Source of the DNA: a virus
DNA: 64,000 nucleotides
IMG/VR virus record: IMGVR_UViG_3300020204_000053
Direction: 5' to 3' (one strand)
Shown here: piece by piece, positions 1-1,743 of the stretch
Layout of the letters: each line of letters opens with the position of its first letter
Position numbering within the stretch: the first letter of the stretch is position 1
Made by a program: the position numbers and the translations under genes
The notes under the pieces: model-generated
What the model saw: the letters and a program-made list of their open reading frames with translations, nothing else
Told to the model about the DNA's origin: nothing
The model's database searches: none

Positions 1-235
1 TTGGTCGTCAGATAATTCATCGTCCGAATTAGCGTCATTCATTATCTTATAAATTTCAGTGATGCATCTTTCGACCTCATCCAAATCCCCTTCCTCTTCC
101 ATCGCGTGATTTGCAACAATATCAATTATTCTAAAATAATCTTCACTTGGGTCTTCCATTTCCATTTGTTCTTTAACAATCTTTTTAACCAATCTTGTTA
201 AATCAGACTCTGTTAATCTTATAATCTTTGCCATT
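1..235 (-). CDS. Hypothetical protein, N-terminal fragment (gene runs off window start); carries conserved N-terminal module MAKIIRLTESDLTRLVKKIVKEQ
   Basis: ATG at 235..233 on minus strand, open to position 1; N-terminal 23 aa near-identical to starts of ORFs 1249..1743 and 24655..25002. Confidence 0.5.
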
Positions 236-250
236 TTATAAATGTTTATA

Positions 251-300
251 ATAAATACCCCAAAAATTTTTAAATGAAAAAACCCCCTTCGTAATTGAAG
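251..300 (-). promoter_or_regulatory. Conserved upstream motif (AAAAATTTTTGGG...TATTTAT on coding strand) 15 nt before ATG, plus imperfect hairpin/T-run terminator for upstream gene
   Basis: Same motif recurs at 846..874 and 2363..2390, each 13-15 nt upstream of a minus-strand ATG; ccccttcg..gaagaggg hairpin followed by T-run on minus strand at ~276..300. Confidence 0.35.
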
Positions 301-325
301 AGGGTCCATAAAAAAAATTTTCAAA

Positions 326-832
326 TTATAATGTTCCGTAATTTCTCATTCTTCTTGACGCTTGTCTACATACACTACCTCTTTCAGCTTCACCTTTAAT
401 TAATTTGATTAATTTAACAACTAGCATCAAAATAATAACAGCAGCAAAGATCTGAATGAAAACAACAGGTACACCAAAACCAGCGATAGTTATAATCTCA
501 CCCACTTGTTCACTTTGAGTATTTTTCTTGAAAATAGATTTAACTTTTTTAATTAACTCTTTAACATCTTTTACAGAAGTTAATTTGTCAATTGCATCTT
601 TAACTTTTCCAAGAATTGTCTTTTGTTCTTCATCCGCATTTGGAGGAGTTTCAAGTGGACAATCATTGACGGCGAAATCAACATCTTCAACCGATACAGG
701 TTCTTCTTCCACTGTTGATAACTCATAATTAATGGTATCGACTACTTGAGATTCATCCTCTTTCAAAAGCCTTTTCTCCAACCGAATATTGGCTTCTTGT
801 ATGTGTCTAATTTTACTATAACTTGTATTCAT
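326..832 (-). CDS. Hypothetical membrane protein (one predicted TM helix near C-terminus, acidic N-terminal region)
   Basis: 168-aa ORF; hydrophobic stretch IITIAGFGVPVVFIQIFAAVIILMLVV. Confidence 0.5.
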   Translation of the reverse strand: MNTSYSKIRHIQEANIRLEKRLLKEDESQVVDTINYELSTVEEEPVSVEDVDFAVNDCPLETPPNADEEQKTILGKVKDAIDKLTSVKDVKELIKKVKSIFKKNTQSEQVGEIITIAGFGVPVVFIQIFAAVIILMLVVKLIKLIKGEAERGSVCRQASRRMRNYGTL

Positions 833-845
833 AATACCATTTCAA

Positions 846-874
846 ATAAATATAAATTTTCCCAAAAATTTTTT
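846..874 (-). promoter_or_regulatory. Second copy of conserved upstream motif AAAAATTTTTGGGAAAATTTATATTTAT (coding-strand sense)
   Basis: Direct comparison with 251..271 and 2363..2390; lies 13 nt upstream of ATG of 326..832. Confidence 0.35.
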
Positions 875-893
875 TTGTCCATTGGTAGTAAAA

Positions 894-1217
894 TCATAAT
901 GAAAAACTTTCTCCACATCCACAAGTTCGGTTCGCGTTAGGATTTACAAACTGAAACCCTTTACCATTTAAGCCATCTGAAAAATTTAATTCAGTACCAA
1001 ATAGGTATAGTAACGATTTATTATCTACCAAAATTTTTACACCTTTATCTACAGAAAGAGTATCGTTTGATTGTTGTTCCGTATCAAAAGAAAGATCATA
1101 TGACAATCCACTACAACCCCCACCTTTTACTGCTACTCTTACGAAGGGTGTTATACATCCACTCTCATCTATAAGTGAATTTAATTTTTTTGCTGCTGAT
1201 TGTGAAACTGTAATCAT
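894..1217 (-). CDS. Fe-S cluster insertion protein, IscA/ErpA/HesB family
   Basis: MITVSQSAAKKL...GGGCSGLSYDLSFD...NPNA..TCGCGESF: three-Cys signature and overall consensus of HesB/IscA; start taken at internal Met (track ORF extends to 1265). Confidence 0.8.
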   Translation of the reverse strand: MITVSQSAAKKLNSLIDESGCITPFVRVAVKGGGCSGLSYDLSFDTEQQSNDTLSVDKGVKILVDNKSLLYLFGTELNFSDGLNGKGFQFVNPNANRTCGCGESFSL

Positions 1218-1248
1218 ATGTGTAACATTGTTAAAAAAAAACCATAAT

Positions 1249-1743
1249 TTAACCCGTTGGGTCATTTACTAAAATCTGGTTAAAGTCTAATACATCTTCA
1301 TAAAACTGTGAACTAACCATTTTAACTTTCAGCCCCGTATTTTTCTCGAACCAATTTATAAAAATATCTTTCCAAATATCTCCGAACAACCCCATCAGTT
1401 TTCCATAAATTGTGTCAGGAATAGTAGCAAGTGGACACATGGACTCAGAAATTTGTTTGATCAAGTTTGTGTTTACACATAGACTATACCAAATTGAATT
1501 ATCAAAATCATCAAAATTCCTTTCAAGTTGGAGGAATATCTCACCACCTCCATCTTTTAAATCATCTTTATAATCTTTTCTACTCATCCAACCGTGATAA
1601 GGTTTTAGATCCTTTTCAAAAATTGAAATGATTGCTTTTTCCAAATTATTAGATCCACCTCCCTTCTCATCAAATTGCTCATTAATTGTATTTTTTATCA
1701 AACTAATAAGTTCTGCCTCTGTGAGTCTAACAATTTTTTTCAT
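1249..1743 (-). CDS. Hypothetical protein with conserved N-terminal module MKKIVRLTEAELISLIKNTINEQ
   Basis: 164-aa ORF; N-terminus shared with 1..235 and 24655..25002, rest unrelated. Confidence 0.55.
   Translation of the reverse strand: MKKIVRLTEAELISLIKNTINEQFDEKGGGSNNLEKAIISIFEKDLKPYHGWMSRKDYKDDLKDGGGEIFLQLERNFDDFDNSIWYSLCVNTNLIKQISESMCPLATIPDTIYGKLMGLFGDIWKDIFINWFEKNTGLKVKMVSSQFYEDVLDFNQILVNDPTG

Follow-up and report, generated by a model that had tools for sequence, protein, structure and literature searches.

We describe here a family of 22-residue N-terminal leaders, which we named class I, carried by three open reading frames (ORFs A, B and C) of the virus record IMGVR_UViG_3300020204_000053 from IMG/VR; the whole stretch of DNA that was analyzed, hereafter the window, is 64,000 nucleotides (nt) long. 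The class-I leader is a portable, modular tag under selection at the peptide level, restricted to viruses and sharply bounded at glutamate 22 (Glu22), and it defines a large and previously undescribed family. By analogy with bacteriophage T4 we tentatively favor the idea, to which we give slightly less than an even chance, that this leader is a capsid-targeting propeptide, functionally analogous to the T4 capsid-targeting sequence (CTS), which would recruit the protein behind it (the cargo) to the scaffolding core and would be removed after Glu22, the cargo being ejected with the DNA.

The three ORFs are all encoded on the minus strand. ORF A (1..234, with its Met codon at 234) is cut by the start of the window and only 78 of its 122 codons are visible; the full-length protein of 122 amino acids (aa) was recovered from an identical metagenome contig (L093 10524-10892). 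Its cargo is acidic and has relatives bearing the same leader (P0001 and P0013). ORF B (1249..1743) encodes a protein of 164 aa whose cargo is an ORFan, since a homologue search in 5.8 billion proteins returned only its own 99%-identical cluster. ORF C (24655..25002, 115 aa) is wedged between a gene for a Dps-like protein (25004-25414) and one for a DHH phosphoesterase (23237-24655). The leaders occupy positions 166..234 in A (MAKIIRLTESDLTRLVKKIVKEQ, profile E value of 2.8e-15 in the six-frame window), 1675..1743 in B (MKKIVRLTEAELISLIKNTINEQ, ending in I-N-E) and 24934..25002 in C (MKKVIRITENDLKTIVKKIIKEQ, also matched by the profile).

When the six-frame translation of the window was searched with a profile of the three 23-mers, only A, B and C were recovered (E values of 3e-15 to 2e-13), the next best match having an E value of 0.025. 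This confirmed the common N-terminal module that a preliminary description of this DNA had reported on the three ORFs. Its statement that the downstream sequences share nothing was also borne out, as BLASTP among the three cargoes gave nothing significant (best E value of 5.9). The N-termini had been called near-identical, which overstates their likeness: pairwise they share 11-15 of 23 residues (48-65% identity), and they are 57-78% identical to the family consensus MKKVIRLTESDLTRLVKRVIKEQ. Two (L/I)-x-E sites had been read in each copy, which needs correcting for the second site of A, this being V-K-E. At the DNA level, similarity is limited to the leader codons, which contain many synonymous, third-position differences, and the upstream DNA is not conserved. 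When Pfam and PHROGs were run on A, B, C and their neighbors, the leader proteins had no match at all. A search for further ORFs starting with the module, which had also been suggested, identified a fourth copy in the same phage about 1 kb past the window start (L093 11316-11837, 173 aa) as well as a large family elsewhere.

Among the 5.8 billion proteins, a homologue search picked out 45 short ones that have the consensus MKKVIRLTESDLTRLVKRVIKEQ and whose tails are unrelated. When 1.84 billion cluster representatives were searched exhaustively with a profile, 8,550 clusters were found to bear the leader (E value of 0.001 or lower); the clustering was done at 50% identity and this figure is a lower bound for the family. 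The pattern K[VI][IV]RLTE[SA][DE] matched at least 600 stretches in the 2.9 million viral contigs of IMG/VR, and among the matches listed the contigs reach 322 kb with a G+C content of 28-35%. The same leader was matched only five times in 185,579 prokaryotic genomes (one per species, 596 Gb), every time on contigs of metagenome-assembled genomes (MAGs), four of which are shorter than 5 kb. Two of these five contigs were binned as Bacteroidota. A tblastn search of 50,697 cultured phage records with the consensus leader and with a 62-aa member found no copy, no Pfam or PHROG family corresponds to the leader, and the leader profile matched only chance fragments among the PDB sequences. A full-text literature search for RLTESDL retrieved no paper, and no earlier description of the family was found.

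To define the leader we counted 254 copies in 88 loci. In 236 of these the leader begins at the initiator Met; the previous stop lies a median of 4 in-frame residues ahead of the leader, and up to 10 leaders are present in 14 kb. The class-I consensus is MKKVIRLTESDLTRLVKRVIKE followed by Q. Most of positions 1-22 carry 3-4.3 bits of information (1.8-2.8 bits at the more variable positions 4, 13, 14 and 21); the value drops to 1.6 at position 23 and stays below 0.6 beyond. Position 20 is I, V or L in 158 of 163 sequences, position 21 varies and 157 of the 163 have Glu22, so that the conserved part ends on a phi-x-Glu tripeptide, where phi is a hydrophobic residue. The first 23 residues include 10 charged ones, the net charge is about +4 and no hydrophobic run exceeds two residues. 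A Sec, Tat or lipoprotein signal peptide was ruled out because there is no hydrophobic h-region after the basic n-region. We also ruled out the leader of a ribosomally synthesized and post-translationally modified peptide precursor, since the cargoes reach 593 aa and include folded domains and no modifying-enzyme gene recurs as a neighbor. Among codon pairs encoding identical residues, 38% differ synonymously, L7, T8, S10 and R18 each use 4-6 codons, and codon use resembles that of the cargo apart from a mild A-rich skew at codons 2 and 6. The frequency of synonymous pairs and the cargo-like codon use indicate that selection acts on the peptide and not on the DNA.

The AlphaFold model of protein C, which is of medium confidence overall (predicted local distance difference test score, pLDDT, of 66.5), consists of a coil (residues 1-8), the leader helix (residues 9-24, pLDDT 80-85), a disordered linker (residues 23-32, pLDDT below 50) and a small beta domain (strands within residues 35-95). 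A Foldseek search of this model against BFVD returned nothing at an E value of 0.001 or lower. From this model, the leader is predicted to begin in a short extended conformation and to continue as a basic amphipathic helix, with a flexible linker to the cargo.

The proteins carried behind the leader are extremely diverse. Clustering of the 178 unique cargoes gave 141 clusters, including 118 with a single member, and many cargoes are acidic and disordered. A transmembrane-like segment is present in 4 of 163 cargoes. When 128 cargo representatives were compared with Pfam, the only plausible domains were PG_binding_1 (2 proteins), YkuD/Tlde1 (1 protein) and OmpA (1 protein); matches to Annexin, Imm64 and SET_assoc (E values of 1e-4 to 7e-4) were judged to be due to chance. 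The N-termini of the peptidoglycan-related proteins have no hydrophobic stretch resembling a signal peptide. In some proteins (P0047, P0048, P0049, P0051, P0054 and P0073) the order is leader-cargo-leader-cargo, the internal copy often being without a Met; these double-leader proteins may be fused neighboring genes or polyproteins that are cut apart.

Cargo exchange is directly visible at the slot of gene C, between the Dps-like and DHH genes. Out of 78 related loci, 68 have a class-I gene in this slot and 10 are empty, the latter including the 317-321 kb contigs L214 and L215, which are collinear with the window over 21 genes. The occupied slots hold five unrelated cargo types, found at 49, 9, 7, 2 and 1 loci.

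The leaders are exchanged as well. The same genomes contain at least four further recurrent N-terminal leader classes on small, otherwise different proteins: class II (MK[YI]IITESQL), class III (MNLKESIRRILREE), class IV (MKHLLNDLSEEEKNSIREQHTGG...) and class V (MNRSYSKIRHIQEANQRLEKRL). All four are present in the window. A class-V gene (326..832, minus strand, leader MNTSYSKIRHIQEANIRLEKRLLKED) lies next to A, and elsewhere class V and class I can replace each other in front of the same cargo. A class-IV gene (2150..2347, minus strand, leader MKHLLNNMTEEEKNSIREQHTGG) belongs to a class that is found elsewhere on the same PG-binding-like cargo as class I. Two class-III genes (5683..6072 and 4944..5291) are on the minus strand and one class-II gene (6990..7298) is on the plus strand. 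Cargo pairs with swapped leaders are 80% (class I/V), 77% (I/II) and 39% (I/IV) identical. Homologous cargoes with different leaders were thus observed, and the leaders behave as exchangeable cassettes. The class-III gene at 5683..6072 encodes a Pterin_4a domain, and its 3' end is the sole stretch of the first 8 kb that resembles cultured-phage DNA (T4-like cyanophages, 77-85% over about 90 nt).

The leader-bearing contigs contain a T4-type head module in T4 order, with genes for a gp20-like portal protein, a gp21-like protease, an acidic scaffold protein and a gp23-like capsid protein. The gp21 homologue encoded by the 14-kb contig L075 is 37% identical to T4 gp21 (E value of 5e-24), its ELNHP and SSRG motifs being aligned, and a class-I gene lies on this contig less than 6 kb from the gp21 homologue and 0.8 kb from the capsid gene. 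The scaffold protein, identified on three contigs (L075 8999-10456, minus strand; L115 8763-10262; L138 11121-12671), is 485-516 aa long (485 aa in L075), has long poly-Glu/Asp/Met runs and is far more acidic than T4 gp22; judging from its composition, it is a plausible electrostatic partner of the basic leader. The N-terminus of the capsid protein aligns with the T4 gp23 propeptide, and all 58 distinct sequences examined have LINE/A (the slash marks the cleavage site) where T4 has FLTE/A. The predicted capsid-protein site, INE/A, has the same form as the leader end, and the leader of B ends in the identical tripeptide (INE/Q). A conserved class-I family (...RYMFFSNLEQ...GHDWAQDHI) is encoded 3-5 kb away from the capsid gene, and some class-I genes adjoin gp25-like and baseplate genes. 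The capsid gene also shares a contig with class-I genes, at a great distance from them, in 3300044633_000899 (296 kb) and 3300031951_000002 (321 kb). The protease, the capsid protein, the DHH protein and the leader were each found on at least about 600 IMG/VR contigs. From the collinearity of the window with the 317-321 kb contigs, the shared leaders and the shared motifs, we infer that the genome from which the window derives has a T4-type head.

Several internal proteins (Ips) of T4 are known to be directed into the head by N-terminal propeptides. The T4 CTS propeptides are 10-20 residues long, and cleavage sites in T4 include ITE-6 and LTE-619 (PMC5694885; for the internal-protein precedent see also PMC3012670). 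In the mechanism that we propose for class I, the leader would bind the scaffolding core of the assembling prohead, where the basic peptide would meet the extremely acidic scaffold, and any protein fused to it would be enclosed. The gp21-type prohead protease would cut after Glu22 (phi20-x21-E22), perhaps also after Glu9, and the freed cargo would stay in the head until it is ejected into the next host along with the DNA. The cargoes would then form a large, quickly turning-over repertoire of injected effectors, some directed against host defence, some acting on the envelope or peptidoglycan, and others.

Scaffold binding, cleavage, packaging and injection of the leader proteins are all inferred from the T4 model, and several features point in this direction. 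Conservation ends exactly at phi20-x21-Glu22, which agrees with the site grammar of T4 gp21. The presence on leader-bearing contigs of genes for the protease, the scaffold and a capsid protein with a LINE/A site suggests that the required machinery is available. The occupation of one syntenic slot by several unrelated cargoes recalls the ip loci of T-even phages. The virus-only distribution, the mostly soluble cargo and the peptidoglycan domains that are devoid of export signals are consistent with delivery from the head, as is, in the model of C, the predicted leader helix and disordered linker ahead of a folded cargo. The capsid-targeting or propeptide role put forward in the preliminary description therefore keeps its basis in a modular tag on unrelated cargo, a phi-x-E boundary, the head genes of the clade and an ip-like slot, and lacks any support from similarity to the T4 CTS.

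Indeed, inspection of T4 IPII and IPIII, which begin with MKTYQEFIAE/A, revealed no sequence similarity between the leader and this CTS, and this is the first of a series of observations that weigh against capsid targeting. The leader, with 22 residues, is twice as long as the T4 CTS, its copy number is far above that of the three Ips of T4 and at least four other classes of leader exist beside it. Glu22 is followed by Q, N or S, where the capsid protein and the T4 Ips have Ala. A phi-x-E tripeptide is common in charged helices. The stretch L7-T8-E9-S10-D11-L12 reads as the hydrophobic-staple and capping-box start of a helix, which begins at residue 9 in the model of C, and helix capping by itself explains much of its conservation, which is simpler than taking RLTE as a cleavage site. 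A Pterin_4a (pterin-4a-carbinolamine dehydratase) domain protein (5683-6072, minus strand) with a class-III leader (MNLQENIQRIK...) would be an odd head cargo, and a minority of proteins have a second, internal in-frame class-I leader. The argument as a whole is drawn from sequence comparison, and no cultured phage carries the leader. The link between the window and the head genes is also indirect. The gene annotation of the window (64 kb) includes no head genes, and no contig joining a window marker and the capsid gene was obtained with an exact 41-mer of the DHH gene or, among the matches listed, with a degenerate 38-mer of the capsid gene. Exact 38/39-mers of the window had no match in IMG/VR, and tblastn of the window-flank genes against 271 head loci did not join window markers and the capsid gene either. 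Finally, a promoter-like motif shared by leader and head genes (see below) also stands before a gp41-like helicase gene and does not establish late co-expression.

We considered six other explanations. The most serious, which we regard as possible although rather unlikely, is that the leader is an uncleaved docking or oligomerization helix that binds a common partner outside the prohead and gathers effectors at one place or regulator in the infected cell. Candidate partners are a hub protein of the phage, a chaperone (the phage DnaJ, for instance), nucleic acid and the host membrane. An amphipathic helix that is basic, has a well-defined start and sits on a flexible linker would suit such a role, as would the interchangeable leader classes, the internal in-frame copies, the many copies per genome and the occurrence of a leader on the metabolic enzyme Pterin_4a, and the phage does encode a DnaJ protein and a sigma factor. 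However, a docking helix leaves unexplained why conservation stops exactly at an invariant Glu after phi-x, why peptidoglycan-binding cargoes have no export signals and why leader genes cluster in or beside the head and baseplate modules. In addition, our survey of the neighbors of leader arrays found no conserved gene for a candidate partner, nor for a transporter or a modifying enzyme.

It is less likely that class I and the four other leaders constitute an undescribed phage protein-sorting code, distinct from T4-style head loading, in which different leaders would direct proteins to different destinations. Possible destinations would be distinct compartments of the virion, a structure built by the phage inside the cell or a Sec-independent route to the periplasm, the last of which would explain the peptidoglycan-binding cargo. 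We find it slightly more doubtful still that the leader is an external anchor, retained on the virion like the N-terminal adaptors of tailspikes, which would fix decoration or accessory proteins to the capsid, neck or baseplate. A conserved N-terminus followed by a variable C-terminus is the grammar of phage fibres, class-I genes do have gp25-like and baseplate genes beside them and the capsid gene nearby, and the cargoes include small beta domains and binding domains. Yet a helix of about 16 residues would hold a protein in place only weakly, the dozens of different cargoes in a genome would be competitors for one set of sites, acidic and disordered cargoes are numerous and peptidoglycan-binding domains would be of little use on a free virion.

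Two explanations appear highly improbable. According to one, the leader would be an N-terminal degradation or timing tag, read by an AAA+ protease of the host or phage, that makes effectors short-lived. These phages do encode ClpP- and Lon-like enzymes (a ClpP gene in L005 and an 'ATP-dependent protease' in related loci), and the Met-basic-hydrophobic N-terminus of the leader may loosely resemble the N-motifs recognized by ClpX. Degrons are, however, short and degenerate, whereas the leader extends over 22 residues at 3-4 bits per position, and neither the virus-only distribution nor the Glu22 boundary and the peptidoglycan-related cargo would be explained. According to the other, just as improbable, the leader would serve unconventional export, by which cargo reaches the periplasm or leaves the infected cell although it has no Sec-type signal. 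It is true that the only recognizable cargo domains bind or act on peptidoglycan (PG_binding_1, YkuD/Tlde1 and OmpA), but the leader is rich in charged residues and lacks a hydrophobic core, no conserved gene for a transporter lies alongside, internal copies exist and most cargoes have no envelope-related features.

A role of the 69 nt themselves, as a recombination linker for cassette shuffling or as a translation-initiation region, is scarcely credible: although cargoes swap exactly at the leader boundary, codons 2 and 6 show the mild A-rich skew and the spacing of 4-6 nt between the promoter-like motif and the ATG of some genes suggests very short mRNA leaders, it is largely refuted by the codon evidence given above (38% synonymous variants, 4-6 codons at each of L7, T8, S10 and R18, and the many third-position differences between the three window copies), and conservation tracks amino-acid properties and ends on a codon boundary. 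A DNA-level recombination linker or shuffling element of the promoter early stem-loop (PeSL) type was accordingly ruled out, synonymous variation being common and the upstream DNA unconserved.

The promoter-like motif is TATTTAT. It was found 5-40 nt upstream of 111 out of 176 class-I genes (63%) compared with 238 out of 1413 other ORFs (17%), an odds ratio of 8.4 (p value of 1.6e-36), and it also precedes 90 of 92 protease, 43 of 49 scaffold and 41 of 67 portal genes. An extended form, (G)TATTTAT(A/T), is located 4-30 nt before start codons in the window and in the loci L100-L333. We consider TATTTAT to be a candidate phage promoter; the idea that it is specific for late genes was dropped, since the helicase gene has the motif too. 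At some genes the spacing of 4-6 nt between motif and ATG would imply nearly leaderless mRNAs. The usual layout upstream of class-I genes is a hairpin with a G-rich stem, a T-run and then the motif, and this succession of terminator and motif indicates that leader genes are mostly independent transcription units. In the window the motif is at 251..257 (minus strand), 16 nt upstream of the ATG of A, and a terminator-like hairpin at 280..307 (minus strand) lies between the class-V gene and gene A, which should therefore be a transcription unit of its own. Across the window, the sequence ahead of start codons is rich in A and T and shows no obvious Shine-Dalgarno motif.

Besides the leader genes, the window encodes IscA, DnaJ, a sigma-70-type factor, two DNA methylases and glycosyltransferases, and it has a single tRNA gene, for tRNA-Met (CAT; 21578-21650, minus strand). 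Three collagen-like tail-fibre genes (35765-44620, minus strand; 928, 976 and 1048 aa) have the TATTTAT motif before the first (19 nt) and the third (31 nt). A 920-aa protein encoded 3.4 kb from them (48033-50795, minus strand) matches glucosyltransferases and 2-oxoglutarate-Fe(II) oxygenases, and a PLOD-type glycosyltransferase match in the window (E value of 1.9e-69), which was not tied to one ORF, probably comes from this protein. From these matches, the 920-aa protein may be a lysyl hydroxylase and glycosylase for the collagen-like fibres. Upstream of the Dps-like gene, a 371-aa protein (25386-26501, minus strand) groups with a family in which the longest protein is of class I, has 593 aa and terminates in PG_binding_1 (L033 12410-14188); by eye, both proteins have a Gly/Val-rich segment reminiscent of pre-toxin TG motifs, and Pfam gave no match for the 371-aa protein. 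Identical proteins were found in four related metagenome samples of the Joint Genome Institute (3300020221, 3300020603, 3300021091 and 3300021093), which we take from their dataset identifiers to be freshwater-lake samples. The host may be a low-GC freshwater member of the Bacteroidota.

The novelty lies in the family, in its size of at least 8,550 clusters and in the set of interchangeable leader classes; the kind of system is already known. The closest known system is the CTS of IPI, IPII, IPIII and Alt in Tequatrovirus. In both cases a short N-terminal leader is common to otherwise dissimilar proteins, the leader ends in phi-x-Glu (I-A-E/A in T4 IPII and IPIII; for class I a motif read from the genes), the genes occupy polymorphic hot spots where the cargo varies between related phages, and head genes of the same types (gp21-type protease, acidic scaffold, gp23-type capsid protein) occur on leader-bearing contigs of the clade. 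The differences are substantial. MKTYQEFIAE and MKKVIRLTESDLTRLVKRVIKE have nothing in common except the M-K start and the phi-x-E end, and because there is no sequence relation we regard class I as analogous, not homologous, to the T-even Ip leader. The leader described here is basic and 22 residues long, against 10 residues and a slightly acidic character in T4; tens of genes carry it in each genome, against 3-4 in T4, and its cargo families number in the thousands; and at least four further classes are interchangeable with it.

Giant phages such as phiKZ and SPN3US, which use an S80 protease with the motif A/S/G-x-E, also have large genomes and many head proteins, and their propeptides are cut after Glu by a gp21-related protease, which is only predicted for the leader here. 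Giant-phage paralogues with identical N-termini have been noted (PMC5694885). In contrast to the short, sharply bounded tag on unrelated cargo that we describe, the propeptides of giant phages are mostly longer than 100 residues and belong to few paralogue families, and the protease of our clade is nearer to T4 gp21. Encapsulin cargo-loading peptides resemble the leader in that a short conserved peptide is in principle enough to load arbitrary cargo into a shell of the HK97 fold, but they are usually C-terminal, are not cleaved, bind the shell instead of a scaffold, are unrelated in sequence and act in a cellular, not viral, context. The packing signals of effectors of extracellular contractile injection systems (eCIS) and Photorhabdus virulence cassettes (PVC), and the trafficking domains of polymorphic toxins (such as MuF-toxins in phage heads), likewise combine a conserved N-terminal address with a hypervariable C-terminal effector. 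These addresses differ in being 50 to several hundred residues long or disordered, in having an unrelated sequence and in targeting tube lumens or using whole domains.

If the class-I leader is a head-loading tag, its 22-residue pattern would be a search key to thousands of candidate injected effectors, anti-defence or envelope-acting, almost none of which are annotated, and the source of these effectors would be an abundant group of uncultured 300-kb freshwater phages. It would also mean that the T4 strategy of a CTS plus variable cargo arose with a peptide of unrelated sequence and operates at a far greater scale, and it would offer a new tag with which large capsids could be filled with foreign proteins. 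Even should the leader address something other than the head, interchangeable address peptides on hypervariable proteins provide a testable handle on viral 'dark matter'.

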